Source of the DNA: a virus | DNA: 64,000 bases | Virus genome (UHGV): UHGV-0311442 | Reading direction: 5' to 3' (one strand) | Part shown: positions 33,944-61,106 of the stretch, piece by piece | Layout: each line of letters starts with the position of its first letter | How positions within the stretch are numbered: the stretch's first letter is position 1 | Notes under the pieces: model-generated | What the model was told of the DNA's origin: nothing | Database searches by the model: none | What the model saw: only the letters and a program-made list of their open reading frames with translations | Translations under genes and position numbers: made by a program

Positions 33944-36900
33944 ATGCCGAGAGAAGACGCGGCGCAGTTTAACGGTACGCTAAGCACAGCGACGTACCCT
34001 AACCGATTTAACGTGGTCATTCCGCCTGAAGGACCTTTTTATCGTATCGGATTAAAACTCACAGTAGCCGACGATACCGCGCCTAACGGACGTCGTACTC
34101 TGATTGAGGGGTTGGACTACTATTTAGGCTATTACTTTAAAGAACTCGCAGAAGCTGAGCAAGATCAGATTTACGGCGGGTTCATGTTGCTGACCGCAAC
34201 AGAAATCGAATATGAGATTTTAGGGGTAGCACGCCAGTATCGTGTACCACAATCTGAAATCGGAAAGTTCTTAGTTCGTACTGACCTGAAAGACCCACGT
34301 AACGTGGACTGGTCAGAGTTAATGGCGTATGCGCCAGTTATTCAACCCATCGATCCTCCTGCTAACTTAGAAGAAGCTATTCTGAGGGATGAGGTTGTTA
34401 AAGCGTTAAACGATATCCGTAAGAAAATCGTTCAACGTTCAACAGAGTTAGATGCAGCGTTTACCGAAGTCACTAACCTGATTTACGAGAACGGTAAAAA
34501 GGTTTTCGACGAGGAGTTATACCAACACCACCTTAATCCTAACGCACACCAGTATACGACCACTGATGTTGGTGCCCTTCCGGTTTTGGGACGTGCTGTC
34601 GACGCTACAAAAGCGTTTGGACTGACGATTGACGAATTGGCTACGCTGATGGGTTCGGCGGGTATTGAGCAATCAGACGTTGATCAGTTAATGGGTGAAG
34701 CCCTTGGTACCGTTTACGGTCGTTGGGGTAGCACAAACGGTAACGAGCTGACGTTTAAAACCGCAGGCGGACACATCATCAGTATCCGTGGTGATAAGTG
34801 GTTAATTACCTCACCGCAACCGTTGGTGATTAAAGCAGACCAGGACAACAACGAATCGGGTTTGGCGGTTGAATTTAGTGCGGGACTGAATACGCTTTGG
34901 GTGCACTCTGGGACAGAACAGGATGTATTAGCGCCGGTTTACAACTCTGTGTATTTGGTTACACCAGAAATGGTGAACATGTACCTGACGTCTGTAACGT
35001 TACTTGAAGCAAATGCCTATTTCAAACCATCAGACAGCGTAAAACCATACGGTACAGCGAAGCAGTCTAATCCGCTAACGTTGAACGCGAATATTCCCAC
35101 AGCAACCGAGTCGGTTTATGGGGTGTTTTCGATTACGAATATCGCAACCTCCGTAGCACTAGGCACTGCTATTTCCCAAAAGGCGGTGACCGAATTAAAA
35201 GACCGGTTAGACTTGTACGTTGACGATGACTACACGGTTAACGGTAAAGGGTTTGTTAAGACAGGCGATAAAATGGTGTTAACCTTAACGAAAACCGATT
35301 TCGGTATCGATAAGATGGATAACACCATGCCGATCGCTAAACCGGTAACAAAAGCGTTAGCGAATGTGCTGAAAAATAAAAGTGTGAAGGAGCACACGCA
35401 CACTACCGCCGATTTGGATAATGTCCCGATTGGTAGTGCGACTGTAGATGGTATTTTACAGTTGTGGGATGCGATTGATGCCACGAATGATAAAGCCGTC
35501 ACGTCTCGTCAAGGGTGGTTGTTCGCAAAAGAGATCAAGAAGGTTTCCGATAAACTGAATACCATCTTACCTGCGTGGACTGTCGGTGGGGCGAAGTTCG
35601 GTAACAAAAACTTCTTACCCATTCCGGCACTCGGTAATTATTCAGGTTTTACAAAGAACCAGTCCTATCAGAAAGGCGTTGTAGGATATCAACAAGGTAA
35701 AGTTTATTCGTTACGTAATGCTTCTAATGGTGTACCTGGTACAGAGGCTATTTATTACGGTTATGCTGATATCAATACGTCGAATGCATTTGAGAACCCT
35801 CAGCAAACTTCGGTGAAATACCATCCTGCTGGGATGAGTAAATATCCTGGAGTGACCTTAAAAGCTATTTTGATCGGTGGTCAGGAAGCGATTATTTGTC
35901 TGGGTTCTGACAATAACCGTTATCTGGTCTTGTTCAATGGCTCGATGGACCACAGTAAGCACACAGTGGTGTGCCGTGTTACAATGCCGAATTATCGCGA
36001 TAATAGTCCCACTGGTTCAAACGAGATTCCGTGGAATCCTCGGCCAGAATCTGACGATGTTGTTCTGGTTGACGACCACGTTTACCTTCTTCGCTCCACG
36101 GTAAATAACGCTGCTTATGCCGTGGCGGCATGGCGTTTACGTAAAGCCGATTTGTCTACTAATGTTGCGTTAGAATTTGAACGTGTAACGTTAAATGGTG
36201 AAATGGGACAATTCGGAGATAACCTCTGCCTAAGAATTGGCCAGAAGACCGAAGAGTCGCAGACTGGTCAATTCTTCACGTATTACCCACCCGAGGCACG
36301 GGCTAAATGGACAATCGGTCACAACTTTGTCCATGGTCCAGAATGTAACCATGCTTGTGCGGTGCGTGACAGTGTGATTCGTGTGAATCATGTACCCACT
36401 GTGTGGTTTGCGGCTGCCGACGGTTCGACGATTAATTTCCGTCAATGGTCAACAAGTTTCACAATCGATACGTTAACGGGTAGAGTTACGTTGGAGGGTG
36501 CCGAACGTTTCCCCATTAAGGCTGATACTACCACACTGACGTTCGCGGATGGTTCAACTGTAGAAACCAGTCGTAAGTGGGGCGGTGGTCAAGCAAACAA
36601 TCGTTGTTTTGCAACGTATGCTAAACCTAACGGCACCGGAATGATGCTTTCCTGTTGGCAGGTTAACGATGCGGACCAGATGCCGAATGTTTCTATTAAA
36701 GGAACGCAAGGCAAAGAGTTTTTCGATTATTTGCGTTACGATAACCCGAACAATACCTCAGGCGAAGGAACGTTTACTTGGGATAAAGGCCGTGGTTCTA
36801 TCTATACCATCGGTCTTTCTCATCCTGTCGGTATCGGTGGTTCGAATAAGGTTTGGCTATCCAATCCACGCAACCGTTATACGATCGAAGTAGAAGTTGA

Positions 36901-39127
36901 CCCAAGTAAACCTTATGACGTTCCTGGATATAGCGGTTATGGCCCGAACAACAACCGTCGAGAAGTTGATGCAACCCTTTACGAACAGTTAAGCTGTATG
37001 GCTGCTTGCATGACTCCAGAGGAGCGTCACGGCCAGTTAAACGGTTGGTATTTGACGAAAGCGGAAACCTTCCCATATCGAAACATCTACGGTAACTTTG
37101 CCCTGTCATCAGAACGGCTGACGTTAGAGGAAGCGGATCGCCAGAAGATGATTAGGATGATTGTCGATGGTGCACCATCTGGTCAGGCAAACGGTTACGC
37201 GAACGAGCGCATCAGCGCAGCACACCAAAGCGGTAACGCGTTGTTTGCGCTCTGGTTGCTAGGCATTAACACTGTTTGTGAGTTCGACTTATTACAAGTC
37301 TCATGCATGAAAATCTTGAGTAACGGACGTCGAGTTCTCGACATCTATTATTTCATGGTGAGTCCGACTAAAGAAAACGGTTATCTACGTTTTAACTCGG
37401 CTACTTTCAAACTCGTTGATTGGTTCTTAGACCTTGATTACGGCTTAAGTTATCAGTCTCTGAGGGAAGAAGCGGGTAATAAAACGCGACGTGTAGGCCA
37501 GCCAATTTTTGCTTCTGCCGACGGTGTAAACTTCGGTCTATGGCTACCTTATACGCTGACAATACGGAATATCGGGGACCTAAATGCTTTGGGTTACGCT
37601 GCGAAGTATACCTTCGACCCTGGGTCGGGTTGGACTCGCGTTCCCGGTAAGTCACAATTGCGTCGGATGGCCCCTGCTCATAATCCCGAAACAGGCTGCT
37701 ACATGGGTGCGGGTAATTGGGACAAGATGGCACTAATTTTCTCTAAAGCAGATCGTGTCTTCTGTTCAGGTAACGCATATACAGCCGAAGAGTTCGTTAA
37801 TGACACCAGATTCACAACTGGGGGACAGGCGGTTATTATCGCTGGTGTGGAAACTGCCGAAGGTTGGATTCTATATTTGACGGAAGAGGTCAGGTTAGAT
37901 TTCGGTAGTAATAGCTATACATTACCGACGTGGTTGGTGGATTTAAGCAATGAATTCCCAGAAAACCATGCTAACCAGACGTTCTATGTTCATGCTGCTC
38001 TTGTAGGTTCGAAAGCTCAATATCAGATCGGTCTGGAAAAGCTGCCGGATACGAGTTCGCGATTATTTGTTGGTACAGTTACAACCGATAAAAAGCGCAT
38101 AGTTGCTATTAACATCGATAAAGTGAAACGGTTAGGCAGGGTTCGTGAATTAGAAGAACACGCTGCTGTTAGAGATCAGCACGACGTTGCAGCGGCGTAC
38201 GATCGAAAAACGGGTCCACTCCAAACCTTGGTTAACCAACCGCTGAAAGCCCCCACGGCATCTGCGGGCAAGGGTGCAGGGTATGCCGATGGTCAGAGAT
38301 GGAATGCGTTGACCGGGATCACAACACGTCCCAAACTGCCGATACAGGAAACCTACGCAGGTTATAAAAGTATCGGTAGAGTAGCGTATGAGAACTGCGC
38401 TGATCAGTTCTGGCAGAAAGCGGTCGCTGCAAACGTTGCAGCGGCTACTGCGTCTGAGAACAGTCAAGCGGCAGCCGCGAACATGAAGTGGTTGGGCGCG
38501 TATACGAAACCGACTACAGGTGCGAATGCATATCTGGCGCTGAGTCTGCGTGTTAAAGTGCCTGGTAATCCCGGCACCGCTAATCGTAGACTAAAAATCA
38601 GGCTTGCGGCTCCGACAGGTATAACCCAAGTTCGTTACGGGTTAAACCAGTCTGGTGGCACGATGACTGAACAGACAGTAACGTTAACTGCTAACAGTTA
38701 TCTGGAAAAAGAACACGCCGGATTTAAGCCAGCCGAAGAAGTCCGTGTACATGCTACGTTTGTCATTCCAAAAAATGAATACGATAGCTACCGTACGAAG
38801 TTCGGTGCTGTTCAGCTGATTGACGTTGAGTCGAACACTGTCATTAAACAGACAGATATCGACACACCGTTTATCGTGTATACCGACACGGAGTTAGCAG
38901 CGCAATCTGGTTTGGTGTATAAAGCGGTTAAGGGTCAGTTCCATCAACTCCCGTCTCAACCTGTCGTCATTGTAACTGATGGACAGACAGGGACTACGCC
39001 ACCGGTGAAAACCTCGTTTGCTGACGGGACATTAACGGTCTACGTGGCAACCACGTACGATGCGGTTAACCCAGCACAAACCCGCGATATCGATAAGCTC
39101 CAGTTCAATCTTATGTTTACATCTTAA
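33944..39127 (+). CDS. tail fibre / receptor-binding protein (1727 aa)
   Basis: shares N-terminal GPFY...DYxLxY module; largest ORF of the operon. Confidence 0.6.
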   Translation: MPREDAAQFNGTLSTATYPNRFNVVIPPEGPFYRIGLKLTVADDTAPNGRRTLIEGLDYYLGYYFKELAEAEQDQIYGGFMLLTATEIEYEILGVARQYRVPQSEIGKFLVRTDLKDPRNVDWSELMAYAPVIQPIDPPANLEEAILRDEVVKALNDIRKKIVQRSTELDAAFTEVTNLIYENGKKVFDEELYQHHLNPNAHQYTTTDVGALPVLGRAVDATKAFGLTIDELATLMGSAGIEQSDVDQLMGEALGTVYGRWGSTNGNELTFKTAGGHIISIRGDKWLITSPQPLVIKADQDNNESGLAVEFSAGLNTLWVHSGTEQDVLAPVYNSVYLVTPEMVNMYLTSVTLLEANAYFKPSDSVKPYGTAKQSNPLTLNANIPTATESVYGVFSITNIATSVALGTAISQKAVTELKDRLDLYVDDDYTVNGKGFVKTGDKMVLTLTKTDFGIDKMDNTMPIAKPVTKALANVLKNKSVKEHTHTTADLDNVPIGSATVDGILQLWDAIDATNDKAVTSRQGWLFAKEIKKVSDKLNTILPAWTVGGAKFGNKNFLPIPALGNYSGFTKNQSYQKGVVGYQQGKVYSLRNASNGVPGTEAIYYGYADINTSNAFENPQQTSVKYHPAGMSKYPGVTLKAILIGGQEAIICLGSDNNRYLVLFNGSMDHSKHTVVCRVTMPNYRDNSPTGSNEIPWNPRPESDDVVLVDDHVYLLRSTVNNAAYAVAAWRLRKADLSTNVALEFERVTLNGEMGQFGDNLCLRIGQKTEESQTGQFFTYYPPEARAKWTIGHNFVHGPECNHACAVRDSVIRVNHVPTVWFAAADGSTINFRQWSTSFTIDTLTGRVTLEGAERFPIKADTTTLTFADGSTVETSRKWGGGQANNRCFATYAKPNGTGMMLSCWQVNDADQMPNVSIKGTQGKEFFDYLRYDNPNNTSGEGTFTWDKGRGSIYTIGLSHPVGIGGSNKVWLSNPRNRYTIEVEVDPSKPYDVPGYSGYGPNNNRREVDATLYEQLSCMAACMTPEERHGQLNGWYLTKAETFPYRNIYGNFALSSERLTLEEADRQKMIRMIVDGAPSGQANGYANERISAAHQSGNALFALWLLGINTVCEFDLLQVSCMKILSNGRRVLDIYYFMVSPTKENGYLRFNSATFKLVDWFLDLDYGLSYQSLREEAGNKTRRVGQPIFASADGVNFGLWLPYTLTIRNIGDLNALGYAAKYTFDPGSGWTRVPGKSQLRRMAPAHNPETGCYMGAGNWDKMALIFSKADRVFCSGNAYTAEEFVNDTRFTTGGQAVIIAGVETAEGWILYLTEEVRLDFGSNSYTLPTWLVDLSNEFPENHANQTFYVHAALVGSKAQYQIGLEKLPDTSSRLFVGTVTTDKKRIVAINIDKVKRLGRVRELEEHAAVRDQHDVAAAYDRKTGPLQTLVNQPLKAPTASAGKGAGYADGQRWNALTGITTRPKLPIQETYAGYKSIGRVAYENCADQFWQKAVAANVAAATASENSQAAAANMKWLGAYTKPTTGANAYLALSLRVKVPGNPGTANRRLKIRLAAPTGITQVRYGLNQSGGTMTEQTVTLTANSYLEKEHAGFKPAEEVRVHATFVIPKNEYDSYRTKFGAVQLIDVESNTVIKQTDIDTPFIVYTDTELAAQSGLVYKAVKGQFHQLPSQPVVIVTDGQTGTTPPVKTSFADGTLTVYVATTYDAVNPAQTRDIDKLQFNLMFTS

Positions 39128-43430: not shown

Positions 43431-44736
43431 ATTCCCTAAGCAGTTAACGTATCAGATCGTAACCAACCTTTCGTGTAACCTGGACTGCGAATATTGTTAC
43501 GAACGTAAGTACCCGCGTAACAACAAAGCGGCCGACATTGTTGATTTCTTACACGCCTGTTTTGAACGTGATAAAAACGAACCGAATGTTGAAGTTATTA
43601 TCGACATTATCGGCGGTGAACCGTTCATGCAGCCTAAGTTGCTGCTGGCAGCGTTTGAAACCGCAGAGCAGTTGTGTAAAGAACACAACCGTCCGTTTAT
43701 GTTTAGTATCTCCACGAACGGGACCTTGTTAGATCGTCCGTTGAACCGTGAGATTGTAGAACGTTGGAAAGACAAACTTTCGGTTGGGGTTTCGATTGAT
43801 GGCTTGCCTGAGTCCCATGACCGTTATCGTATCTTCACAACAACGCGCCAGGGTTCTTACGAAGCCGCAGTACGTGGCTATAATTACTTAAAAGAGGTTG
43901 GCATTGCAGAACTCGGCGTAAAAGCGACCTTTACGTTAGAAACACTGCCGTTCTATGCTGCAGGGATGAAGTCATTAATTGACATTACTGGCGGTGGGAC
44001 AATTTCTGGGAACGTAACCTTCGAAGACGTTATGCCACGTAGCATGGCGACGTCAATCGCTTTACAGATGATGGATGTGATAGATTATTGGGTTGAGAAA
44101 GGATTACACACCAACCCACGTAATATCTTATCGCACATCATTCCAGAAGGGTTGGATTTCGATACGATTTGGGAACCGAACTGGCGTGACCAGTTACTGT
44201 ATAATGACACCGTACGGTTGAACCCAGAACGTTTACGTCCGTTCTGTGGGACGTTAACGCACATGACGTGCTTAGGATTTGACCGTAAGATCTTTGGCTG
44301 TAACCGCTTTATGTCAACGGTAACGTCGCGTTCTGCGGTGTTTGAGTTGGTAGGTCGGGAATTCGTCAGTCTGGACAACGGTAAATTGTTAGAAGAGATT
44401 CAAACGCAATATACCAACTACCCAGAGACCTGTTTAGGTTGTCCGATGAAACACGCTTGTGGTAGCTGTGCGGCGGCTTCTTACGAGAACGGGGAAGGAA
44501 CGTTAGAAGACCGTAAAGCGTATCACGCTGAACGTCGTCAGTGTGGCTGGACGACAGCGAAACTGATGGTGGCGGAATACTGGAAACAGAAGATGGGTAC
44601 GACGTCAGCAAAAGCGTTCCACGACACGAGCATGTGTTATTGCCCACGCTGTGTTCGTGAACGTGCCCAAAAGGAAAAATTATTAAGAGAAGCCAAAGAT
44701 GAAACCAATTCTGATCAACAATATTACGAAGCGTAG
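43414..44736 (+). CDS. radical SAM enzyme with SPASM-like C-terminal domain (440 aa)
   Basis: CNLDCEYCYE and GGEPF motifs; C-terminal CLGCPMKHACGSC cluster typical of SPASM/twitch auxiliary Fe-S domains; 17-nt overlap with upstream gene. Confidence 0.7.
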   Translation: MSQANEFPKQLTYQIVTNLSCNLDCEYCYERKYPRNNKAADIVDFLHACFERDKNEPNVEVIIDIIGGEPFMQPKLLLAAFETAEQLCKEHNRPFMFSISTNGTLLDRPLNREIVERWKDKLSVGVSIDGLPESHDRYRIFTTTRQGSYEAAVRGYNYLKEVGIAELGVKATFTLETLPFYAAGMKSLIDITGGGTISGNVTFEDVMPRSMATSIALQMMDVIDYWVEKGLHTNPRNILSHIIPEGLDFDTIWEPNWRDQLLYNDTVRLNPERLRPFCGTLTHMTCLGFDRKIFGCNRFMSTVTSRSAVFELVGREFVSLDNGKLLEEIQTQYTNYPETCLGCPMKHACGSCAAASYENGEGTLEDRKAYHAERRQCGWTTAKLMVAEYWKQKMGTTSAKAFHDTSMCYCPRCVRERAQKEKLLREAKDETNSDQQYYEA

Positions 44737-45271
44737 AATTCGACTTCTGGATAAGTTTCTGGAAAACAGTAAGCTATTCGGTTGTTATGTGGTGATTAAC
44801 GGTGAAGATTTTACCGATGACGTAAAACGCTTACTGATTCGTCACGGTGTGACTGTAATCATCCCAATGTACTGCACCGAACTTACTGACCTGTCGGTCG
44901 CGGAAATTGAAAAACGTAACCCAGGGTTTGAAGAACGGGTATTGGATTTCCCACGTCACAAAATTGCGTTTCTACGCCGCTCTTTAAGCGAACCCAGCGC
45001 AGAATCTATCACTGTGTTGGCATTGTCCTTCCCCGGCATTACTATCTTCGCAACACGTAACCCGAACTCACCGATTGATGGGTTTTACGATGAGCGAGAG
45101 AAATTTAATACCGTGATTTTTCCTGAGCTAACGCCAGAAGAATGCCAGGGTATCCGTATCGATTGGGAATCGGACTTCGACACAAGATTCCGTCATATCG
45201 ATTTTGAACTGTTAATCGAATTAGGGTTGATTAAAGGAGACGATGAATGTCTGCTACTGGTGAAGGCTTAA
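44699..45271 (+). CDS. hypothetical protein (190 aa), cassette accessory
   Basis: ORF track; overlaps preceding gene by 38 nt. Confidence 0.45.
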   Translation: MKPILINNITKRRIRLLDKFLENSKLFGCYVVINGEDFTDDVKRLLIRHGVTVIIPMYCTELTDLSVAEIEKRNPGFEERVLDFPRHKIAFLRRSLSEPSAESITVLALSFPGITIFATRNPNSPIDGFYDEREKFNTVIFPELTPEECQGIRIDWESDFDTRFRHIDFELLIELGLIKGDDECLLLVKA

Positions 45272-46578: not shown

Positions 46579-47109
46579 TTATTCTTTAGGAGACGGTGCG
46601 GTGAAGCCATCCAGTTCACCTTCCAAACCGCTCAGTGCTACTTTCTCAGGAGCCGGAGGAGTAACTTTATACGTCGCGACAGTACCAGGCAGGAACTTCA
46701 AGTGGCCAGCCACAACCGTTACCACGTAAATGGTTTTGCCTTCTTCTTCACGAGAAATAGTTTGCAGGTCGTTTTCACCGAACTCGTCATCGGTGTACCC
46801 TTTCTCAGCCATGGCTGCGTTAACTTTCGCCAGGATCTTCGTTGGTGAATCGAAATCGGTAGTAGGTGCAGTTACTTCAACTTCACCAACGATGTCGCAG
46901 GAAAGACGAGTATAGTGGAATTCTTTCTCGCCTTTGAAGTTCTGGCTTTCTGCCTTGGCGGTCAGAGTAATTTTAGTGTTGCGGCCAGCTTCTCCGGTGA
47001 ACTCAGCGACAGCACTAAAATTAACATCATTTACAGTCAACTTAGAAGCAGTTTGGTTGTTTTTAGCAATTACAATCTCGATAAGCTGCTGTTGAAAAGT
47101 TTTAGCCAT
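46579..47109 (-). CDS. five-member paralog family protein (176 aa)
   Basis: TKITLTAKAESQNFKGEKEFHYTRL aligns with TKVTMTALPGSENFKGAIELHYDRL in neighbour. Confidence 0.55.
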   Translation of the reverse strand: MAKTFQQQLIEIVIAKNNQTASKLTVNDVNFSAVAEFTGEAGRNTKITLTAKAESQNFKGEKEFHYTRLSCDIVGEVEVTAPTTDFDSPTKILAKVNAAMAEKGYTDDEFGENDLQTISREEEGKTIYVVTVVAGHLKFLPGTVATYKVTPPAPEKVALSGLEGELDGFTAPSPKE

Positions 47110-51234: not shown

Positions 51235-51271
51235 GAAAATTAATTCCGCTATAGACCGAAGCCTATAGCGG
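51235..51271 (-). terminator. possible terminator hairpin
   Basis: CCGCTATAG-accgaagc-CTATAGCGG downstream of 51279..51710. Confidence 0.35.
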
Positions 51272-51278
51272 AGAGAGG

Positions 51279-51710
51279 TTAGCGAACGTTATGTGCTAAG
51301 TACATCAGAGAACGAGTGTCGGTGTCACGATAAGTTTGTGACATCTGGCTCAGTAACTTGTTGGCGGTAGGATCGCTATAAAGACGTTTTAACCATTCGT
51401 CAACCATTTCTGGTACAGTGTCGACCAGCAGTGGATAGTTAAGATTTTCCAGTGTGTATTCAACGAATTCGTGCATCAGATTCTGGTCACGATGCATGGT
51501 GTCACCTAACTCACCTGCGGGATACTCTTCACGAGGACGTTTACCCCAGCTGCAAATCTCCATATAGGCCGTGTTTACAATCTCTTTGTATTCCTCTAAC
51601 TTAAGTAAATCGAAGCCAGCATTCGGGCGGCAGAAACCTACTAAAACGCTCAGAGCAATAGGGTTGTTACGAACGTAGTTACGGATTTCATCATTTAATA
51701 CGAAAAACAT
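51279..51710 (-). CDS. hypothetical protein (143 aa), paralog of 52914..53342
   Basis: aligned N-termini (NDEIRNYVRNNPIALSVL vs NSDLRDYIRQYPASIPVL) and shared W-x-R-L...DP motif. Confidence 0.55.
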   Translation of the reverse strand: MFFVLNDEIRNYVRNNPIALSVLVGFCRPNAGFDLLKLEEYKEIVNTAYMEICSWGKRPREEYPAGELGDTMHRDQNLMHEFVEYTLENLNYPLLVDTVPEMVDEWLKRLYSDPTANKLLSQMSQTYRDTDTRSLMYLAHNVR

Positions 51711-51742
51711 TTTAATACTCCTTTAGGTAAATACAATAATGG

Positions 51743-51762
51743 AGGGGTGGTTTACCACCCCT
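51743..51762 (-). terminator. possible terminator hairpin
   Basis: GGGGTGG-ttta-CCACCCC after stop of 51780..52892; weak T-run. Confidence 0.35.
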
Positions 51763-51779
51763 TGTACGATTTTAGTTAA

Positions 51780-52892
51780 TTAACGAAATTTTTGACAAGC
51801 AGGGCAATCGCAGCCTATGCCAGATGATATTTCTCTAAAGATCGCGTCGATCGAGTGCTCATTATTCTTAAGAAAACGAGCTCCCGCCAAGTCACGCAGA
51901 TGAGTTTTTAACTTTCCGATAATACCGGGTTCATAGTTGAGTAGAATGGTAAGTGTATTGTCTGTGTAAGTCCACTGACGGACTTTCTCAGGAAACCAAC
52001 GAGCGATATCACGCATAAACTTATCGGCATCTTCTTTCCCAATAGTAGTGATTGTCAGAAGACGTAGACGATTGTCAACAATCTCATTAATGAGGTTGCT
52101 AATTTCTTCGTCAAGAGCAGCGTCCCACCATTTCCATTTAATGATGAGTTTTTCGCCCTCGAGTTTAGTCTCTACTTTGGTAGGATAGAAAGCTGTCAAG
52201 GTATCATTAATCGCTTCGGCCTCTGGGCCAGTGTAAGTAAAGGAATACGGTTCTTCGAACCATTTAATAACGTCAGGATCATTATCAACAAGCACGGTTA
52301 GCGTGCCGTCGACATAATTAGACCCACGAATTTTCTCCTTGTATTCGTGAACAGCACTACGCATGAGTTCATCAGCGGTATCTTTTCCGATACCATGAAT
52401 CGAAATAAGTCGAACGGCATCGTTATCGATCAGCTCAGCGATAGAACTAATTTCTTCCATGAGATTACGATCGTCTTTCTTCAATCGAACGACGATCTTA
52501 TCGTTATCCGAATAAATGCCTAAATCGTCGGGATAGAGGGTCTCTAACGCTTCTTTAATTTCCTTAATCTTCTTACCTTCGTACCAGAGGACGTGTGGTT
52601 CGTCTTTCTGCTGTTCTTCTACTTTCGGTTGTTCAGTCTCGGTCGTTTCCACCCGAGTGTTCGTGGTACCTTCTGCTGGGTTGAGTAACTCACCGATTTC
52701 TTTCGCGATAGTGTCGCAAAGATAATCGTTGCAGTGAGTCCAGTAGAATACGATGCTTTCATCGTTGACCTGCTCTACACGGAAATGTACACCTTTATCC
52801 AGGAATATGCGATAAAGTTGATCAAGTAACTGTGCTTCAGGAACCGGACGGATTTCAGTTTTAACGAGCGGGGTAATTTCGATATTAAACAT
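51780..52892 (-). CDS. hypothetical protein with internal duplication and C-terminal Cys cluster (370 aa)
   Basis: two ~65-aa repeats; C-terminal CDCPACQKF. Confidence 0.55.
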   Translation of the reverse strand: MFNIEITPLVKTEIRPVPEAQLLDQLYRIFLDKGVHFRVEQVNDESIVFYWTHCNDYLCDTIAKEIGELLNPAEGTTNTRVETTETEQPKVEEQQKDEPHVLWYEGKKIKEIKEALETLYPDDLGIYSDNDKIVVRLKKDDRNLMEEISSIAELIDNDAVRLISIHGIGKDTADELMRSAVHEYKEKIRGSNYVDGTLTVLVDNDPDVIKWFEEPYSFTYTGPEAEAINDTLTAFYPTKVETKLEGEKLIIKWKWWDAALDEEISNLINEIVDNRLRLLTITTIGKEDADKFMRDIARWFPEKVRQWTYTDNTLTILLNYEPGIIGKLKTHLRDLAGARFLKNNEHSIDAIFREISSGIGCDCPACQKFR

Positions 52893-52913
52893 GTCATTTT
52901 TCCTTTTGGTAAA

Positions 52914-53342
52914 TTAGCTGTAATTGTGCTTAAAGAACTCTAAAGCACGCTGGTCGTTTGTAATCGCCGTTGTGGACATTCGTTTTAACGCCTGGCGGCA
53001 GTAAGGGTCGTTCAGAATACGTTGCTGCCAAGCGTTGACTATTTCCGTCACTGTTTCCCCTTCTACAGCAGTGTTAAGTTTATCGAGGCAGTGCCGTCCT
53101 AACAGAAACGCAACTGCGTAATCGGTAAACATCTCGGTGCCGAAATCCCCGTCGGGATAATCGCAACGTTTACGTACCGACGTTGCGGTAATGGAGTTAT
53201 AAGCGGTTTTTATTATCTCGTGGAACTGTTCCACCGTTAAGATGTTAACGTCAGTACCTGAAAGCGTAAGCGATGCCAGTACAGGAATACTGGCTGGGTA
53301 CTGACGGATGTAATCACGCAAATCTGAATTGAGCGTTTTCAT
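52914..53342 (-). CDS. hypothetical protein (142 aa), paralog of 51279..51710
   Basis: see 51279..51710. Confidence 0.55.
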   Translation of the reverse strand: MKTLNSDLRDYIRQYPASIPVLASLTLSGTDVNILTVEQFHEIIKTAYNSITATSVRKRCDYPDGDFGTEMFTDYAVAFLLGRHCLDKLNTAVEGETVTEIVNAWQQRILNDPYCRQALKRMSTTAITNDQRALEFFKHNYS

Positions 53343-54090
53343 TCATGAACCCTTTTGTTTTTATCCAATATAAGCAATTTGCACCAACCTGAACTGGCTC
53401 GATCCTATCAAGTTCTTCCATCAGAGCCAGATAAGTTTGCCAAACGGTTTGACGTTCGAAGAAAAATGATGTTGTGCCATTAGACCTAAGACATGCACGT
53501 ACTAAGTGCTCGGTTTGTGAAAACTGTATATTAACGTTGTTCAGGACACGTTGTATAGTATCAGAGTCGTAATGCGCGAAACGATCTTTGTGTACCAGAA
53601 CCATCTCTATAGGCGAGGAATCGTCATTGACTGAAAAAGGTTCGTCAATGCGAATAAGGTTATTCCGGTGAGGTACCCCATCGTAACCGAGCGTATAGAC
53701 ATCCATACCTTCCCCCGGGTTACAGTCGAAATACTCCAGAATTTTATCAGCGTTTTTCTCCGCCGAACGTTTAAAGTAAACAATATAAACGGTATGACTA
53801 ATCTTCTCAACTTCGTATACTTTTTCGGAGAACGATCTGAAAATTGCCATGACGTTTAATCTTCCTTTGTCTTTAGCAACGTAACTTGCAACTAAACACG
53901 TTGCTTCACCACGAAGAACATCGTCAATGAACTCTTTTGCTCGTTTTAATTCATCCTCGTTAAAACCACCGATAGTGAGCTCATTCCCATAAATCTGATA
54001 AGCAAGATGTGGAGTAACGTTTTTCAGGAAACTCGTAATGATGTGCGTGTATGCCCAAAGACTACTATTCTTAAACTCGATAGTTTTCAT
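53314..54090 (-). CDS. hypothetical protein (258 aa)
   Basis: ORF track. Confidence 0.5.
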   Translation of the reverse strand: MKTIEFKNSSLWAYTHIITSFLKNVTPHLAYQIYGNELTIGGFNEDELKRAKEFIDDVLRGEATCLVASYVAKDKGRLNVMAIFRSFSEKVYEVEKISHTVYIVYFKRSAEKNADKILEYFDCNPGEGMDVYTLGYDGVPHRNNLIRIDEPFSVNDDSSPIEMVLVHKDRFAHYDSDTIQRVLNNVNIQFSQTEHLVRACLRSNGTTSFFFERQTVWQTYLALMEELDRIEPVQVGANCLYWIKTKGFMNENAQFRFA

Positions 54091-54134
54091 TTTATTTTCC
54101 TTTTGGTTTTACAAGCTGAAACGTTAATTTACGC

Positions 54135-54629
54135 TTAGAGGTGTTTTCCGATAACTTCCGAAACTAATTCGTAAAGGTCATCGTCACTGCACACGTCTAC
54201 GCTAATTCCGATATCGATACTACGACTGCGGAACCCTACTTTGAGCGTTTTACCGAATTCGGTTTGTAGGGCTTTATAGAGTCTATTCTTATCTTCTTTA
54301 AAGAGAGGAACAGGTAGTCTAACAGTGAACTTGTAATGTTCTTTCGAAACAAGTTCGTTAGAATAATTAAAACGTTTAGCCACACGGGTTCCGACAATCT
54401 GTGTTATCAGCTTAAACATTTCTTCGTCACTATACGGAGTTGCGCCATAACCGATATCAATAGAATTTCTACGGAATCCTGCGCAGAATAATGCACCGAA
54501 TTGCTCACGGAATTCTTTGTATAGAACATCTTTTTCTACATCCCACAGCCCGTAACCCAAGTCAACAGTGAATTTGTATTTTTCTTTGTCAACTAATTCG
54601 TTAGTGTAATCAAGTCTAGTGAAGTTCAT
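54135..54629 (-). CDS. tandem-duplicated ~80-aa domain protein (164 aa)
   Basis: two repeats sharing NELV-KE-YKFTV...LYK...FG...GFR-SIDIG...CSD..L. Confidence 0.55.
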   Translation of the reverse strand: MNFTRLDYTNELVDKEKYKFTVDLGYGLWDVEKDVLYKEFREQFGALFCAGFRRNSIDIGYGATPYSDEEMFKLITQIVGTRVAKRFNYSNELVSKEHYKFTVRLPVPLFKEDKNRLYKALQTEFGKTLKVGFRSRSIDIGISVDVCSDDDLYELVSEVIGKHL

Positions 54630-54676
54630 GGTATATTCTCCTAAAATGGTTTTCGTTAAGTGAGAGCTTTTGTACT

Positions 54677-54710
54677 CTCACCTAAGTAATATATATCTGA
54701 AATTATTTTT
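54677..54710 (-). promoter_or_regulatory. conserved promoter-like motif, copy 3
   Basis: minus-strand reading AATAATTTCAGATATATATTACTTAGGTGAGAG, then hairpin and RBS of 54135..54629. Confidence 0.45.
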
Positions 54711-54711
54711 A

Positions 54712-54993
54712 TTAAAAACCCGCAATAAAACTGCCTAGCGAGACACGTTGCAAGTATTTTGGTTTGCGTGCCAGGTAACAGTTCTTAGGATTACCTATTG
54801 CCATCTGTGCAACTGCACGTTCTAAACGCGGCGCTTCTAAGATGGCACGATAGTTCCCTTCGTAGTGCATCAACCACGCACACTCTTCAACAAAACGTTT
54901 TGCTTCTCGGTATTCTAACGTACGAATTAACTTCTTGCCCCGGTATTGTTTTACATCACCGTTTTGACAAAATACAATAGTTTCACGCTTCAT
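54712..54993 (-). CDS. hypothetical protein (93 aa)
   Basis: ORF track. Confidence 0.45.
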   Translation of the reverse strand: MKRETIVFCQNGDVKQYRGKKLIRTLEYREAKRFVEECAWLMHYEGNYRAILEAPRLERAVAQMAIGNPKNCYLARKPKYLQRVSLGSFIAGF

Positions 54994-55294
54994 TGATAAT
55001 CTCCCAGTTCGCTCTTATAATCTCACGTTTACAGTCTTCAATATCTTTACGGTAAAACGTCGTTTTTTCTTTTAATAGCTTTAATATCTCCTCTTTAGGC
55101 AATTTCCCCTCACAACCCAATTCAGCAATAGCACAAACGAGAACAGTCAAATATTCTACTGAACCGGTTTTCGCACGATATTCAGAGATAAGTTCTTGTT
55201 GTGTTTCAACGGTTTCTTCTAATAACTTGATATATTCTTCGTGCTTTGCGCACGCTTTGCATTTTCCGAAACCTAGCAATTTAAAAACCACTAT
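54983..55294 (-). CDS. hypothetical protein with CxxC (103 aa), GTG start
   Basis: AAGGAGG 5 nt before GTG at 55294; the track ATG at 55330 lacks an RBS. Confidence 0.45.
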   Translation of the reverse strand: MVVFKLLGFGKCKACAKHEEYIKLLEETVETQQELISEYRAKTGSVEYLTVLVCAIAELGCEGKLPKEEILKLLKEKTTFYRKDIEDCKREIIRANWEIINEA

Positions 55295-55592
55295 TACCTC
55301 CTTTGGCAATCCAGGTCGCCACACGCACATGAGCGTCTTGAAAAGACGATATGAGCAAGATCACACCGCCTAACGTACGAGGGACGCGTAAGGCTTCGTA
55401 ACGACGGCAGTAAGAACGTACGCAATACTCGGAACCTAAGATAACGATTTCGCAGTATTCTGAACGAATAGGTAGTAGTTGAGAAACGAGTTTATCGCAC
55501 GTTTCTTTATTGTCTTCTAACAACCCACCACGGAGAATATAGTTGACAATGTTCTCAGGTACCGATGTGTTTGTGATTTTACTTTCCATCAT
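55281..55592 (-). CDS. hypothetical Cys-containing protein (103 aa)
   Basis: AGGAG RBS. Confidence 0.5.
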   Translation of the reverse strand: MMESKITNTSVPENIVNYILRGGLLEDNKETCDKLVSQLLPIRSEYCEIVILGSEYCVRSYCRRYEALRVPRTLGGVILLISSFQDAHVRVATWIAKGGNSGF

Positions 55593-55978
55593 TAAACTCC
55601 TATAGTGATCTCCGTAATGTGCATTCTTCGCATCTCACGGGTCATTCTGTCTATTGCTCGTTGACACTCGAATAAATTGTCGTAGTATTTCTGGGCGGTA
55701 ACGTTGAATATAATCCGACCTTCTTTCAATTGTTTAGCAACGACTTTTGTAGTTTCCGATTCAAACAGCAAACCACCTTCCCTGCCGATCTTAACTAAAA
55801 CGTCACGAATGATAACGTTTATAAGCTCACCATTTGGGGAAACCACGATTTCCGTATACCAATCGCCCTCGCTAACGATACGTTGTACCCTTTCACCGCA
55901 TAGCCAGTTTTTAACTTTCCCGTTAACATACAGTTGGGCTTTCAGTAACAAACGTCTTTTAATGTAAGATAAACGCAT
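55592..55978 (-). CDS. hypothetical protein (128 aa), paralog of 55982..56356
   Basis: shared GDWYTEI...IGREGG...F...TAQ core. Confidence 0.55.
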   Translation of the reverse strand: MRLSYIKRRLLLKAQLYVNGKVKNWLCGERVQRIVSEGDWYTEIVVSPNGELINVIIRDVLVKIGREGGLLFESETTKVVAKQLKEGRIIFNVTAQKYYDNLFECQRAIDRMTREMRRMHITEITIGV

Positions 55979-55981
55979 CTT

Positions 55982-56356
55982 TTAAACCTCCACCGTAGTT
56001 CGTTCAGTTTCTTTAATAAACTTACTAAGCGATTCATTTAAACGTTTTACTCTTTCACCAAACTTAACTACTGTATCGTAAAGGCATTGTGCTGTACCGT
56101 TAAATAAAATCGGACCGTTTTTTAACTCCAGGGCAGAAACTTGATAGTATTCAGAGTTGAAGATTGCTCCTCCCTCGCGTCCTATTCTAACAACTACGTT
56201 ACGAACTTGTATGTTTTGTAACCCACCGTTTGCTAACGTAATAATCTCTGTATACCAGTCACCCGATTTAACTACCGTTGTGACATTCTTGCCGCAAGCC
56301 CAGGTTTTAAACGAAGTGTCTAGCCAACATCTGAATTTGTATAACAGTAATGACAT
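55982..56356 (-). CDS. hypothetical protein (124 aa), paralog of 55592..55978
   Basis: GGAGGAG RBS; see above. Confidence 0.55.
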   Translation of the reverse strand: MSLLLYKFRCWLDTSFKTWACGKNVTTVVKSGDWYTEIITLANGGLQNIQVRNVVVRIGREGGAIFNSEYYQVSALELKNGPILFNGTAQCLYDTVVKFGERVKRLNESLSKFIKETERTTVEV

Positions 56357-56398
56357 ATCGTTACTCCTCCCTCTCAGGATTTCCTGAGAGGGGTTATA

Positions 56399-56680
56399 TC
56401 ACAGTTTCTCTTCTATTGTATCTAATCGAACTAACGCATCGTGACTGACTTTCCGTGCGTGTCCGATTGTCCCACCGAGGGCTTTTGTTGTTGGGTCTAA
56501 GGTATTCAGACGGTGATACTGATAATCGATATCACGTATACAACGCGCCTGTTGTTTTACCATCCGAATTAATAGTCGTTTGGTTTGACGATTGTTACTA
56601 AGCTCCTGCCGTAATCGCGTGTTTTCTTTATAAAGCTCCTGTTGACGTGAGTTAATTAAACCCAACAACCAATCTAACAT
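56399..56680 (-). CDS. hypothetical coiled-coil protein (93 aa)
   Basis: ORF track. Confidence 0.45.
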   Translation of the reverse strand: MLDWLLGLINSRQQELYKENTRLRQELSNNRQTKRLLIRMVKQQARCIRDIDYQYHRLNTLDPTTKALGGTIGHARKVSHDALVRLDTIEEKL

Positions 56681-56682
56681 TT

Positions 56683-57198
56683 TTACCCCCGGTGCAAGAA
56701 AATACGGTTAGTGTTTTCGAATTTCGGTTCTGTCCACTCTAGTTCCCAGTAAGCCTGGTTAATATCGCGAGACGTGAGTTTCAAATTCGAAACACCGGGG
56801 ATATCGATCTGCTGCAGTAAATTAATAATCGTCACCAGCTCTTTACGAGGACGGTTCCAGATAACTTCAAGATACTCTTTCAGACGCTCCGGATAAGCGA
56901 CAGGTCGAATATAAACTAGTCCAGCGGGATACTCAATTGCTGAGGGTGTTCTAGGCACTAACCAAACCCAGTCTTTTAATAACGGTCCTGGGTGATAGTT
57001 AGAGAGTTGAGTAAGCGCGTTTGCGACCGAACAACAACGGAAGTAGGTGATATCCCAATCGTGTTCATGGCAATTTCGCGCAACGATAACTTTTAAACGG
57101 TCAATAGGTTTACCGTCGATGGTCGTAACACCAGGTTGATTCGCCAGAATCTGACGTTCACGTTTAGTGTAAAGATTCATGTTAATATTTACTGACAT
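56683..57198 (-). CDS. hypothetical protein (171 aa)
   Basis: ORF track; conserved initiation context. Confidence 0.5.
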   Translation of the reverse strand: MSVNINMNLYTKRERQILANQPGVTTIDGKPIDRLKVIVARNCHEHDWDITYFRCCSVANALTQLSNYHPGPLLKDWVWLVPRTPSAIEYPAGLVYIRPVAYPERLKEYLEVIWNRPRKELVTIINLLQQIDIPGVSNLKLTSRDINQAYWELEWTEPKFENTNRIFLHRG

Positions 57199-57244
57199 TT
57201 AATGCTCCTTTAGGTAAATGGTGGGGTAATTAAGCTACGGTTCC

Positions 57245-57688
57245 TTAAATCATGCCTGGGAATTCGAAATCGATTTTATCTAAAAGTTTGTAGTCGTCTT
57301 TTAGCTGAAGCATTAGCGTATTCTTAAACAGTTCAAGCGAACCGATAAAGTAAGCCGTATAGCAGCTACCACGAACAGAAGAGGAAAGACCCAAGTCTCT
57401 TAAACACTGTTTCAAGATTTCATGTTCTTCAGCGGTACCGAAAAGTTGGAAATTGATAACGGTAATCTGTTTATTAATGATTGCCGATAACCATTCTTTA
57501 ATTCTTCTCGTGGTTATTCTTTCTTTGAAATCACTAGCTTCTGGCAGCCAGGTAATGTGAACAAACGGTGCATCGTAATCCACGAGAACTTTCTGCTGCC
57601 AACGTACTTGCATCAAACCACGAATACGGTTTGCTAACGTTTCAGAATCACAAAGTAGCATAATGCCGTTGGTAGTATTTGGTTTCAT
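57245..57688 (-). CDS. hypothetical protein (147 aa)
   Basis: AAGGAAGGG RBS. Confidence 0.5.
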   Translation of the reverse strand: MKPNTTNGIMLLCDSETLANRIRGLMQVRWQQKVLVDYDAPFVHITWLPEASDFKERITTRRIKEWLSAIINKQITVINFQLFGTAEEHEILKQCLRDLGLSSSVRGSCYTAYFIGSLELFKNTLMLQLKDDYKLLDKIDFEFPGMI

Positions 57689-58536
57689 AATTGCCCTTCC
57701 TTCTTAATGTAATCTTCAACCAACTTATCAAACACGATTTTTATCTTCTCGCGTTCTTCTTCGCCCAATTCACCGGAACAGGTTAGTCCGTTTATCTTTC
57801 CGTACCGTAATTCCAACACATACTTCAACCGATGACGTAAGGCTTGTTCAAAATGCGTTGGAATATAAATTGGTTCGAAGTTGTGCAATAAAATAAAATC
57901 GTCTTCGGTGTGTTTAGGAGGTTCGAATTTTACTCTATCTAAGATAGTAAGCCAGCGTTGTCTGTCGACTAGCCGATCGTCCCAATAAACAGGTTTTGTC
58001 TTAGAGGGGGTAAGTGTATTGTAGTCACTGGAATCGGAGATACGGAAATTTGCTGTGACGTAAGTCTTCGAGAGTAACGAGAGAAGACAAATCGTGCCTT
58101 CTTTAGGGTAGCTTAAAAGCTCTCCGAGTACGTCTTTAGCTTTCTTGAAGTAGTCTCTAATATAGTCTTCAGCAATTGGTTGAATTTCTACTTCCATACA
58201 GCTAATTTGGGGCCCGTCTATCCGTAAAGGAATTTTTAGTTCAGCAATATACTGCCTATCAGATGTATAAGCTCGCGTAATAATAGGGTACGTAACAGGC
58301 TTGGCCAAATGACGATATTCATCATTTCTAATGACTGAGTAACGTCCAAACCCGCCTTTATTCGATTTTGAAAAAGCGTAAAGGTCTTTTAGATACTCTA
58401 GATACTGGTCATCGGTCATTTCGTCGGTATTAAATTCACGAATGTAAAGTCGTTCAACAAATCCCTTTGTTTGTTCGTAGTAATAACTGGGGTCCCTATT
58501 TGCTAGAATGTGCGGGAGATAATACGGGTGTGACAT
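57685..58536 (-). CDS. hypothetical protein (283 aa)
   Basis: AAAGGAGGA RBS; first gene after promoter-like motif. Confidence 0.55.
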   Translation of the reverse strand: MSHPYYLPHILANRDPSYYYEQTKGFVERLYIREFNTDEMTDDQYLEYLKDLYAFSKSNKGGFGRYSVIRNDEYRHLAKPVTYPIITRAYTSDRQYIAELKIPLRIDGPQISCMEVEIQPIAEDYIRDYFKKAKDVLGELLSYPKEGTICLLSLLSKTYVTANFRISDSSDYNTLTPSKTKPVYWDDRLVDRQRWLTILDRVKFEPPKHTEDDFILLHNFEPIYIPTHFEQALRHRLKYVLELRYGKINGLTCSGELGEEEREKIKIVFDKLVEDYIKKEGQL

Positions 58537-58584
58537 CTAATCCTCCTTTCGGCTATAACTAATGGAGTGAACGTAAATTTCACT

Positions 58585-58616
58585 CTCCCCTAGGTAATAT
58601 ATATCTGAGAAAAAAT
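58585..58616 (-). promoter_or_regulatory. conserved promoter-like motif, copy 4
   Basis: minus-strand reading TTCTCAGATATATATTACCTAGGGGAGAG then hairpin GAGTGAA...TTCACTC and RBS. Confidence 0.45.
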
Positions 58617-58653
58617 ATAAAAACCGTAGGATGGACTTAGTCCATCCTACGGT
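58617..58653 (-). terminator. rho-independent terminator
   Basis: hairpin CCGTAGGATGGAC-tta-GTCCATCCTACGG flanked by A/T runs. Confidence 0.6.
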
Positions 58654-58658
58654 TTAAA

Positions 58659-60785
58659 TTAAATAACTACCCAGCTTTTACCATCGGAGCCAACTTGCAT
58701 TAGCGTAATACTTTCAGTGGTCTCAATGGGTTTGGCAAGACCTTCCGTCCCACCCTTTGGAGTGATGAGAACGTTCGAATTTTGCGGTTTAACGGTGATC
58801 GAACCAGCCTTATTTGCCACGATCTGTATATTTCTACCCACGCTATATTCTAGATCAGGAATAGTAAGTTGGCCGCCACGGTTGGTGGCTGGGAAATACA
58901 CATAAGACGATACATCTTCCTCAGATAACACTATACTACCAGAATCACGATTGACCGAGATCTCAAACTTAGAAATATCGATATCGTAGGCAGTAACTTT
59001 CGTAATATCTGTCAGAACCAATTCGTTCAAATTGGTCTTAGCTGTACTGTTCGCCAGATCAAATGGAGTGCCATTCTTGCCGTCAAGCACAGGCGTGACT
59101 TTGATTTTATTGTCACCCGGATAAATGATTTCAAACGTATGCCAGTTATTATCGTACGCACCAAAAGTTCCTAATTGCACATTCTGCTTTTTATGATGCA
59201 TCAGATAAAGATTCGTACCGTCGGTCTGTAAGAAAAAAGACATTAAGTACGGGTTCGTATCAGCCACACCAGCGTCAGCAAGTGTAGTACCAGAAGGTAG
59301 GTCGGACGCGGAAATACGCCAATAAAGTCCTAATCCGAAACGATCTGCTGCTAAATCACCTTTTAGTCTAAAAGTAACGGTCAGACGTCCACCGTAACGT
59401 ATCATGTCCGCAGCAGATGTCATTGACTTAGTTACATTCCAAGGTTTCATCGTTACAGCCTTTCTTAATTCGACGAAATGCCCGTTTCCATCCTCAGAAT
59501 CTTGCACGGTTACGTTACAATCAACGATATTGTTCCAACCCTGCCCTTTCAGGGAACCATCTCCACGACGTCCGTTATAACCCACAGACTCTACTAATGG
59601 GGTATAGCTTCTTACCACATTCATATTGTCTTTGAGCTCTTTAGTGTCGTTCTTCGTCAGGAGCATTGCACCATTCGCTGTTCTTGATAATATCTCAGCA
59701 GCTATTCTCTCTGAGATAATACCGCGTCGTGCCCAAGAACTGAAATGGCTATTCCTTGTTTCAGACGTCCAGTTTTTATTACTACGGGTGGCAGCACCGT
59801 AGTAGGCAGCACCAGCGATATCAGGATCGTCAGTGGGATCATTAGTCGGTACACGTTGGCCATTATCGTCGTACATGAATGGAACAAAAAAGATATTTTT
59901 TTGTTCATTGTTACGATAATTACCGTATATGGTTTCATATTGAACAGGATATTTTTCCTTCCAATAGTAGGTAGTGTCCCCGCAGATCCATGGTACTTCG
60001 GCGGTGTCGTACTCGGGCATCTGAGAGAGATGGTCAGAGAGATCAGTTCGGAAACGCTCTACCATTGCCATAAATAACGCTGGTTGTTGTGCGTAACCTA
60101 CTTTAGTCAGATCATACTCCCCCTGCATCCACACTACAGCCAAGAGTTTATTTTTAGGATTAACGTCCAGAGCTTTTTTGGTCCGGCTAACTAAATCTTT
60201 ATAAAGAGGTTTTTCCACCCCCCATACCGATGACGTCGCAGAGGCTCCTGTGGCTTCATCGAAGGTACCTTCTGCACCACCCGTGAAAGCAGAACCGCCG
60301 CGTGCGCAGGGTACTAGTAAGATACCAGCGTTGCTAGGAATATACGGGAGAAGACGCTTCGCGATGTGTAGACCTTGACCCACACATCCGTATTCACCTT
60401 TGTCCAAATTGGCTTTGGGGTGCGAGAATACGGACATATCTTGCACGTCGTGCAGACAGTGATCCGCTGGAATGACGTCGTTATACTTACAATCAGCACC
60501 ATTAGGCGTTACCTTCGCACGGCGCGCCATTTGTTTAATCCGCGGATCGGGAGCGTCCAACGTCGCTGGTAAAGGCAATCCTTCACCATAACTCATCGCA
60601 TTAGATTGCCCGGCTATAGGGATCACGAAGTAATAATCCGGTTCCGTCACCCCCCCCCCTTGAAGTTCTGCAATATCAATTTTATATTCTTTTTCTTCCT
60701 TAGAAAGGAGAACTACCGCACCTTTGAGATCGCCAGAGAAATTGTCGAGTTCATGGATACGTTTCTTTCCAATTGGTTGAACCAT
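58659..60785 (-). CDS. tail-associated SASA/SGNH-type carbohydrate O-acetylesterase with C-terminal beta-rich domain (708 aa)
   Basis: N-terminal FVIPIAGQSNAMSYGEG (GQSN motif); GGAGGT RBS before ATG 60785; adjacent to fibre genes. Confidence 0.6.
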   Translation of the reverse strand: MVQPIGKKRIHELDNFSGDLKGAVVLLSKEEKEYKIDIAELQGGGVTEPDYYFVIPIAGQSNAMSYGEGLPLPATLDAPDPRIKQMARRAKVTPNGADCKYNDVIPADHCLHDVQDMSVFSHPKANLDKGEYGCVGQGLHIAKRLLPYIPSNAGILLVPCARGGSAFTGGAEGTFDEATGASATSSVWGVEKPLYKDLVSRTKKALDVNPKNKLLAVVWMQGEYDLTKVGYAQQPALFMAMVERFRTDLSDHLSQMPEYDTAEVPWICGDTTYYWKEKYPVQYETIYGNYRNNEQKNIFFVPFMYDDNGQRVPTNDPTDDPDIAGAAYYGAATRSNKNWTSETRNSHFSSWARRGIISERIAAEILSRTANGAMLLTKNDTKELKDNMNVVRSYTPLVESVGYNGRRGDGSLKGQGWNNIVDCNVTVQDSEDGNGHFVELRKAVTMKPWNVTKSMTSAADMIRYGGRLTVTFRLKGDLAADRFGLGLYWRISASDLPSGTTLADAGVADTNPYLMSFFLQTDGTNLYLMHHKKQNVQLGTFGAYDNNWHTFEIIYPGDNKIKVTPVLDGKNGTPFDLANSTAKTNLNELVLTDITKVTAYDIDISKFEISVNRDSGSIVLSEEDVSSYVYFPATNRGGQLTIPDLEYSVGRNIQIVANKAGSITVKPQNSNVLITPKGGTEGLAKPIETTESITLMQVGSDGKSWVVI
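60650..60659 (-). repeat. G10 homopolymer tract inside the esterase coding sequence (codons for GGGV)
   Basis: ten consecutive C on plus strand; in frame as given. Confidence 0.85.
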
Positions 60786-61106
60786 TGTAACCTCCAATTT
60801 TTAAACCAATACTCTTCCGGTTAGCGCGACATGCCGTTCTGTGATAAGGCAGTACTAACGATAAGTTTAACCGGGGTTTGTTCTTCCGTAATAGGGATTT
60901 CATCGAGATTGTTGATATCAATAGTAACATCATGGACTTTAGGCATTGTTACCAAGATAGTCAACATTACCACCGATGCTTTTGTGGAAGTATCCGCAAC
61001 GTAATATTTAACGTCCAGTAATTCGTTACTTTCAGATAAGTAGAGTATTTGCGGATAGATTGTTATCAATGTAAAAAAAATACCAACGCCATTTAAGTTT
61101 TAGCCA

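Follow-up and report, generated by a model that had tools for sequence, protein, structure and literature searches.

A variable, probably early and non-structural module of small genes with four local duplications in a jumbo phage related to SPN3US

The 64,000-nucleotide stretch of virus genome UHGV-0311442 analysed here (the window) contains a run of small, partly duplicated genes, which sit in a 7.4-kb minus-strand module (58655..51245) with a strong terminator-like hairpin at either end. The source of the window appears to be a jumbo phage of about 225 kb that belongs to the proposed genus 'Bapsvirus' (Chimalliviridae) and is related to SPN3US. We consider it fairly probable, judging from sequence comparisons, that the genes form a variable early non-structural module, arranged as two early operons, which encodes small cytoplasmic factors that bind host or defence components and which evolves by duplication, loss and recombination. 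A first-pass annotation of the same DNA had recognized two paralogue pairs and two proteins with internal tandem duplications, and had interpreted the region as a fast-evolving accessory region involved in host interaction. The module is preceded by a tailspike-like gene and followed by DUF7941 head-protein genes.

Formal alignments bear out all four of the duplications, each on the minus strand. By BLASTP, the products of 51279..51710 (143 amino acids, aa) and 52914..53342 (142 aa) are 32% identical over 138 aa without gaps (expectation value, E, 2e-28), and those of 55592..55978 (the 128-aa 'B' copy of a 124/128-aa family) and 55982..56356 (its 124-aa 'A' copy) are 42% identical over 110 aa (E 3e-32). 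Two tandem ~82-aa units make up the 164-aa product of 54135..54629 and are 42% identical over 79 aa (E 2e-23), and two ~115-aa units in the 370-aa product of 51780..52892 are 34% identical over 112 aa (E 5e-23). The repeat in 54135..54629 is also visible in the DNA, where a 50-nucleotide (nt) stretch and its counterpart 243 nt away retain 78% identity. Both members of the first pair match the phrog_8484 profile (E 1.5e-20 for 51279..51710 and 1.7e-15 for 52914..53342), and in each case the alignment covers positions 3-126 of the 140 in the profile. When all 14 families encoded between the terminators were compared profile to profile, no relationships emerged beyond the two paralogue pairs. A small domain common to the 147-, 258-, 164- and 370-aa proteins was considered and rejected, as all-against-all hhalign comparison gave probabilities below 3% for all but the two known pairs.

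The duplications are real, but as a mark of this region in particular they do not hold up. All-against-all BLASTP of the 74 open reading frames of the window recovered about ten paralogue families spread across the 64 kb, and the enrichment of paralogues in the region (four of ten genes, compared with the rest of the window) is not significant (Fisher p 0.24-0.49). As paralogues abound throughout the window, local duplication does not set the region apart; it is a habit that this phage shows genome-wide. Elsewhere in the window, three adjacent genes of very large size (25332-39127, plus strand; 1440, 1394 and 1727 aa) are also mutual paralogues, with E values down to 6e-19. From their position and size they are probably the equivalents of gp168-170, 'paralogue family C' of SPN3US. 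That family comprises baseplate or fibre proteins (PMC5694885).

Read along the minus strand, the module starts after a hairpin with perfect 17-nt arms and a 1-nt gap, followed by a T-run (58621..58655), which lies after the 712-aa SASA (sialate O-acetylesterase-like)/DUF6645 tailspike-like gene (58659-60797, minus strand) and forms the upstream edge. An early-promoter-type motif, P1 (58583..58608, TCAGATATATATTACCTAGGGGAGAG), with a 5' hairpin at ~58559-58593, is followed by nine genes: a 283-aa ORFan (57685..58536), a 147-aa gene conserved in Bapsviruses (57245..57688), a gene for a 171-aa phrog_8180 protein (56683..57198), a gene for a 93-aa coiled-coil-like protein (56399..56680), the A and B copies, a gene for a 103-aa phrog_9649 protein (55281..55592), a 115-aa gene with variable alleles (54983..55330) and a second 93-aa gene (54712..54993). 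A further motif, P2 (54675..54700, TCAGATATATATTACTTAGGTGAGAG), with a 12-bp hairpin at 54656-54685, is followed by five: the 164-aa tandem-unit gene, a 258-aa variable slot (53314..54090), phrog_8484 paralogue 1 (142 aa), the 370-aa gene with its tandem two-module duplication, and phrog_8484 paralogue 2 (143 aa). A short G+C-rich 8-bp hairpin (51743..51762), terminator-like with a weak T-run after the stem, separates the last two genes, and a 12-bp hairpin with a UUCG-type loop (51245..51272) closes the module before the DUF7941 genes. G+C content is 0.44-0.50 in the structural genes and reaches the window minimum of 0.397 at 54001-56000, an interval in which GC skew is strongly negative.

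The prediction of early expression derives from the two motifs and their placement. The 26-nt motif occurs three times in the window, where none is expected, and two of the copies are those inside the module; the third (18229-18254) precedes another run of small genes without assigned function and an SbcC-like gene. All three are intergenic and oriented as the genes downstream of them. The motif matches the published promoter consensus sequences of phiKZ (TATATTAC) and 201phi2-1 (TTTRARR_BTATATTACDWHDGTG), both listed in Table 2 of PMC7058600. According to a review, AT-rich motifs centred near -10 are early promoters of the virion RNA polymerase (vRNAP) in jumbo phages that encode RNA polymerases (PMC7598289). 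Like phiKZ-type early vRNAP promoters, the copies recur with the TATATTAC core and a downstream GTG, point in the direction of the operons, are multi-copy and intergenic and stand ahead of runs of small genes of unknown function. They differ from phiKZ-type promoters in that conservation extends further, over 26 nt with hardly any variation among three genera, and in that a hairpin follows each copy examined, with its 5' arm inside the motif.

Conservation of the element extends well beyond the window. P2 and its flanking bases share 97-100% identity with SPN3US-like and Erwinia jumbo phages across 36-38 nt, and in SPN3US, phiEaH2, Asesino and pEa_SNUABM_29 the same motif lies just upstream of the single phrog_8484 gene (one gene earlier in phiEaH2). 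In an IMG/VR scan, a strict 19-base version of the motif was confined to contigs of the same clade (107-246 kb, plus one 7-kb fragment), in which a genome has three to five copies and the copies of any one contig share a strand. The hairpin directly follows every motif copy, both in the window (54656-54700, 58559-58608 and 18195-18254, minus strand) and in the related loci L001, L004-L007 and L009-L013. The conserved GG(T/G)GAGAG at the end of the motif doubles as the 5' arm of the hairpin, whose 3' arm is found 6-11 nt further downstream; loop and stem length vary between copies and between phages. One compensatory change was found (GAGAGTGAA/TTCACTC versus GAGAGCGAA/TTCGCTC). The hairpin could be a stabilizer of the 5' untranslated region or a part of promoter recognition. 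Motif and position together suggest that the module comprises two early operons.

The position of the module corresponds to the gp125-gp137 block of SPN3US, which lies between tail-associated gp124 and the 'paralogue family B' head proteins gp138-154. For only five of the module's 14 genes could a counterpart be detected in SPN3US, phiEaH2, Asesino or pEa_SNUABM_29. The 171-aa phrog_8180 protein is the orthologue of SPN3US gp127 (46% identity) and of Asesino gp143 (56%), the 103-aa phrog_9649 protein that of gp131 (51%), and phrog_8484 corresponds to gp135; the N-terminal 25 aa of the coiled-coil-like protein are shared with gp128, and the N-terminus of the other 93-aa protein with gp133. The SPN3US block and that of the Erskineviruses (phiEaH2, Stratton and Asesino) thus resemble the module in position, in these five shared orthologues and in the motif ahead of the phrog_8484 gene. 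They differ in that phrog_8484 is single there (35 Seoulvirus, Erskinevirus and related records have one copy apiece by tblastn) and duplicated here, and in that no counterpart was detected there for the 370-, 164-, 258-, 283-, 147- and 115-aa genes or for the 124/128-aa family. A tblastn search of GenBank phages with the 370-aa, A-copy and 164-aa proteins gave no match.

The virion proteome of SPN3US includes gp123, gp124 and gp138-154 and none of gp125-137 (PMC5694885, Supplementary Table 1). The module is therefore probably non-structural. The alternative is that its products belong to the virion or help to assemble it, for instance as chaperones or adaptors of the tail fibre or as minor head or ejection proteins, and that their variability tracks the swapped receptor-binding genes immediately upstream. 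The location of the module, between the tailspike-like SASA/DUF6645 gene and the DUF7941 'paralogue family B' head genes, would suit such a role, and paralogue families are typical of SPN3US virion proteins (PMC5694885). The upstream fibre module does differ among relatives, as other Bapsviruses carry a Peptidase_S74 long fibre and Gp38-like adhesins in place of the SASA esterase, which looks like a receptor-binding module swap. However, the variable genes do not follow fibre type (L009, L011 and L013 have different fibres and the same 283-aa gene), terminator-like hairpins divide the module from both structural neighbours, and it has early-type promoter motifs of its own. Together with the proteomic gap that coincides with the block, this makes a virion role quite improbable in our judgement. 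No module gene matches DUF7941/phrog_1037 ('paralogue family B'), to which only the flanking genes at 49774, 50264, 61107, 45983 and 46579 belong. Only the first ~50 residues of the 712-aa SASA/DUF6645 protein match SPN3US gp123.

Bapsviruses, Seoulviruses and Erskineviruses are nucleus-forming jumbo phages. The assignment of the window to 'Bapsvirus' rests on homologous contigs and synteny; host origin, synteny with SPN3US and low nucleotide similarity to Seoulvirus all agree with the description of the genus, which has genomes of ~220-226 kb, Seoulvirus synteny with low nucleotide similarity, and an occurrence in isolate assemblies (PMC12768965). Nucleotide searches of GenBank phages returned distant relatives only (SPN3US-like Seoulviruses, Erwinia phages phiEaH2, Stratton and Asesino, and pEa_SNUABM_29); identity to SPN3US and the Erwinia jumbo phages is ~73% and limited to conserved genes. 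Closer relatives were found through the 370-aa protein, which has 253 homologues at 65-89% identity, many of them on 222-226 kb contigs from Salmonella, E. coli and Shigella assemblies and from metagenomes. Two near-complete relatives have been deposited as non-mobilizable 'plasmids' in complete assemblies (NZ_CP173450.1 of E. coli 98232, 221,873 bp, and NZ_CP134650.1 of Enterobacter ludwigii, 222,441 bp). In these records the match covers 14 genes, every one annotated as hypothetical.

These deposits are consistent with the carrier-state idea of PMC12768965, and they bring up the possibility that the module aids persistence in a carrier state, through damped lysis or superinfection exclusion, which would explain why Bapsvirus genomes are so common in isolate assemblies and appear as ~222-kb 'plasmids'. 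That most module genes are Bapsvirus-specific would fit as well. Seoulviruses, however, are also common in assemblies, yet they lack most of these genes, and the Pfam and PADLOC searches found no repressor, partition or toxin-antitoxin signatures. A persistence function thus seems to us very improbable as an explanation of the module.

Variation was assessed in eight Bapsvirus loci (L007-L014) with flanks that are 90-100% identical to the window. Within them, conserved genes alternate with variable slots in which genes are replaced, duplicated or missing. The 283-aa gene is present or absent among Bapsviruses (missing in L007, L008 and L012), and all relatives carry an extra gene of 175-280 aa just downstream of the 147-aa gene that is absent from the window. 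The 124/128-aa family has one to three copies: a single B-type copy in L009, L012, L013 and L014, a single A-like copy in L007, L008 and L011, both A and B in the window, and three copies in L010, the third at only 28% identity. Relative to L013, the A gene of the window is an exact one-gene insertion. The 115-aa gene falls into two allele classes, 87-90% identical to that of the window in L009 and L013 and 37-39% identical in the other loci, and the 258-aa slot holds a 91% allele in L013 and 47-48% alleles in L007, L009 and L012; in L010 and L011 it is filled by a 157-aa gene unrelated to these.

The slot of the 164-aa gene is occupied in L013 and L014, in which the flanks are 97-100% identical to the window, by an 88-aa one-unit gene that is 59% identical to the first half of the 164-aa protein and 45% identical to the second; no remnant of a second unit was found beside it in these two loci. 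Among the genes that keep their position, the 370-aa gene is the most variable. Its divergence from L013 is limited to nt 52400-52700 (approximately aa 64-164), where identity is 62-68% between flanks above 90%. The phrog_8484 pair flanks the 370-aa gene in every locus and is fixed in Bapsviruses. A distance tree places the two Bapsvirus copies together with weak support, a placement that fits a duplication within the Bapsvirus lineage.

All genes of the module are real and under purifying selection: pairwise ratios of nonsynonymous to synonymous substitution rates (dN/dS) are 0.02-0.47, i.e., below 0.5 throughout. The highest values belong to the 370-aa (0.24-0.39), 115-aa and 283-aa genes; the flanking structural genes have ratios of 0.02-0.12, and most duplicated genes are at ~0.1. 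The first-pass description of the region as accessory and fast-evolving is thus supported by the small share of genes with even a distant counterpart, by the variable slots, and by the elevated ratio of the 370-aa gene relative to its structural flanks. The process it proposed, local duplication followed by divergence, fits less well, because the polymorphism is in large part cassette exchange and gain or loss of copies, and the duplicated genes are constrained, with the phrog_8484 pair stable in all Bapsvirus loci. Rapid change comes mainly from recombination and copy gain or loss, not from gradual divergence after local duplication.

The same data bear on the view that the genes are neutral by-products of recombination-prone replication, i.e., weakly useful or nearly dispensable filler with no specific host role. 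The wide spread of paralogue families over the window agrees with this, the authors of the SPN3US study tie paralogy to a T4-like replication and recombination system (PMC5694885), and screens score some 55-70% of jumbo-phage genes as non-essential (PMC13282480). The constraint of every gene by purifying selection, with most dN/dS values near 0.1, argues in the other direction. So does the fact that, in all Bapsvirus loci examined, the 164-aa gene, the 370-aa gene and the phrog_8484 pair have kept their positions, along with the association of phrog_8484 with the same promoter motif across three genera. On balance we regard neutrality as unlikely.

None of the block genes has a Pfam family above threshold or a significant PDB sequence match, and all PHROG matches of the block proteins are to families of unknown function. 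None of ten proteins matched PADLOC-DB at E <= 0.1, a library of defence, not anti-defence, proteins. The AlphaFold2 model of the 370-aa protein (mean predicted local distance difference test score 79, predicted template modelling (TM) score 0.43, from a 47-sequence alignment) has five β-α-β-β-α modules (residues 9-70, 101-156, 160-216, 217-272 and 276-343), with a disordered acidic linker at 74-97. Profile comparison indicates that module 2 is homologous to module 4 (96.6% probability) and module 3 to module 5 (98.9%); module 1 resembles modules 2-5 in secondary-structure pattern alone, without a sequence link. The C-terminus has an invariant CxCPxC. In predicted structure the protein resembles tandem ferredoxin-like, ACT-like and secretin-N-type α/β modules, without sequence similarity (identity 7-20%), and hits of such size to so common a fold do not imply that the function is shared.

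Several candidate assignments were rejected. A helix-hairpin-helix DNA-binding function of the 370-aa protein fell short of the cut-offs (HHH_5 24.2 bits against 27, HHH_2 14 against 27) and is contradicted by the AlphaFold2 model, in which the segment is a strand-helix junction of a β-α-β-β-α module. A PDB hit of the B copy to the designed WRAP-T propellers (E 1.8e-6), suggestive of WD40, is the sum of eight 5-6-bit matches to identical repeats, each with E >100, and the 124/128-aa family has no Pfam WD40 hit. The match of the 164-aa protein to a 1223-aa WD40 protein is likewise an artefact of weak matches summed over repeats. For phrog_8484 (51279..51710) the predicted model is confident and all-helical, with no match among solved structures. 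The BFVD model of a second protein of Erwinia phage Stratton (A0A1B2IHF1, 131 aa) resembles it (TM-score 0.62-0.67, 11% identity, E 0.03), and Erskineviruses may also carry a very diverged paralogue of this fold.

Under the reading that we favour, an injected virion RNA polymerase would transcribe the module as two early operons from P1 and P2. At the onset of infection the small proteins would then bind host or defence components in the cytoplasm, as host-specific factors that the phage can dispense with. This role is suggested by the predicted timing, the non-virion status, the small size, the lack of catalytic signatures and the variability. Host interaction, as proposed in the first-pass annotation, is plausible, given the early-promoter motif and the absence of the SPN3US orthologues from virions. 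The module would evolve by tandem duplication of genes and domains, by loss of copies, and by homologous recombination between co-infecting relatives, in which whole genes or gene parts are swapped and the conserved genes serve as anchors between the variable slots.

Some observations weigh against this interpretation. No module protein matches a known anti-defence, defence, toxin or host-takeover family in the Pfam, PHROGs, PADLOC, PDB and structure searches, and selection on the duplicated genes is of the ordinary purifying, not the positive, kind. The promoter assignment for this phage rests on motif similarity and position, and the number of copies (three per 64 kb, three to five strict copies per genome) compares with 28 early promoters reported for phiKZ. 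Further, the structural neighbours are also mosaic among otherwise near-identical Bapsviruses: every relative has just 54-62% identity at 46579..47109, which encodes a DUF7941 head-family paralogue, and the 190-aa gene at 44699..45271 is either 52% or 99% identical among them. Since neighbouring structural genes are mosaic too, mosaicism does not single out the module.

Large lytic phages, T4-like phages for example, have hyperplastic or accessory early-gene regions, i.e., clusters of small, non-essential, early and lineage-specific genes that vary in content and copy number among close relatives. The region is an ordinary variable, probably early, gene block of this familiar kind, and its genes are new members. 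The copy-number 'gene accordions' of poxviruses offer an analogy for the varying copy number; the variants seen here may equally be ancestral tandem copies that were differentially lost. More speculatively, and with low confidence, the module might be an arms-race locus of early immunity antagonists or host-factor binders, the specificity of which is re-tuned by recombination and copy-number change. If this were true, the specificity determinants would be the swapped segment of the 370-aa protein (linker and module 2), the one- and two-unit forms of the 88/164-aa protein, and the copy number (one to three) of the 124/128-aa family, and the phrog_8484 fold would be a new class of early effector common to Seoulvirus, Erskinevirus and Bapsvirus.

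Interest in jumbo phages of these genera comes from therapy and from their unexplained persistence in bacterial isolates. With its attached hairpin, the near-invariant 26-nt promoter-type element provides a practical handle with which early genes may be predicted in several hundred newly found genomes. For the probable early, non-virion module, the fixed and variable slots are now listed, and phrog_8484, the 370-aa modular protein, the 88/164-aa protein and the 124/128-aa family are candidate host-range, anti-defence or persistence genes.

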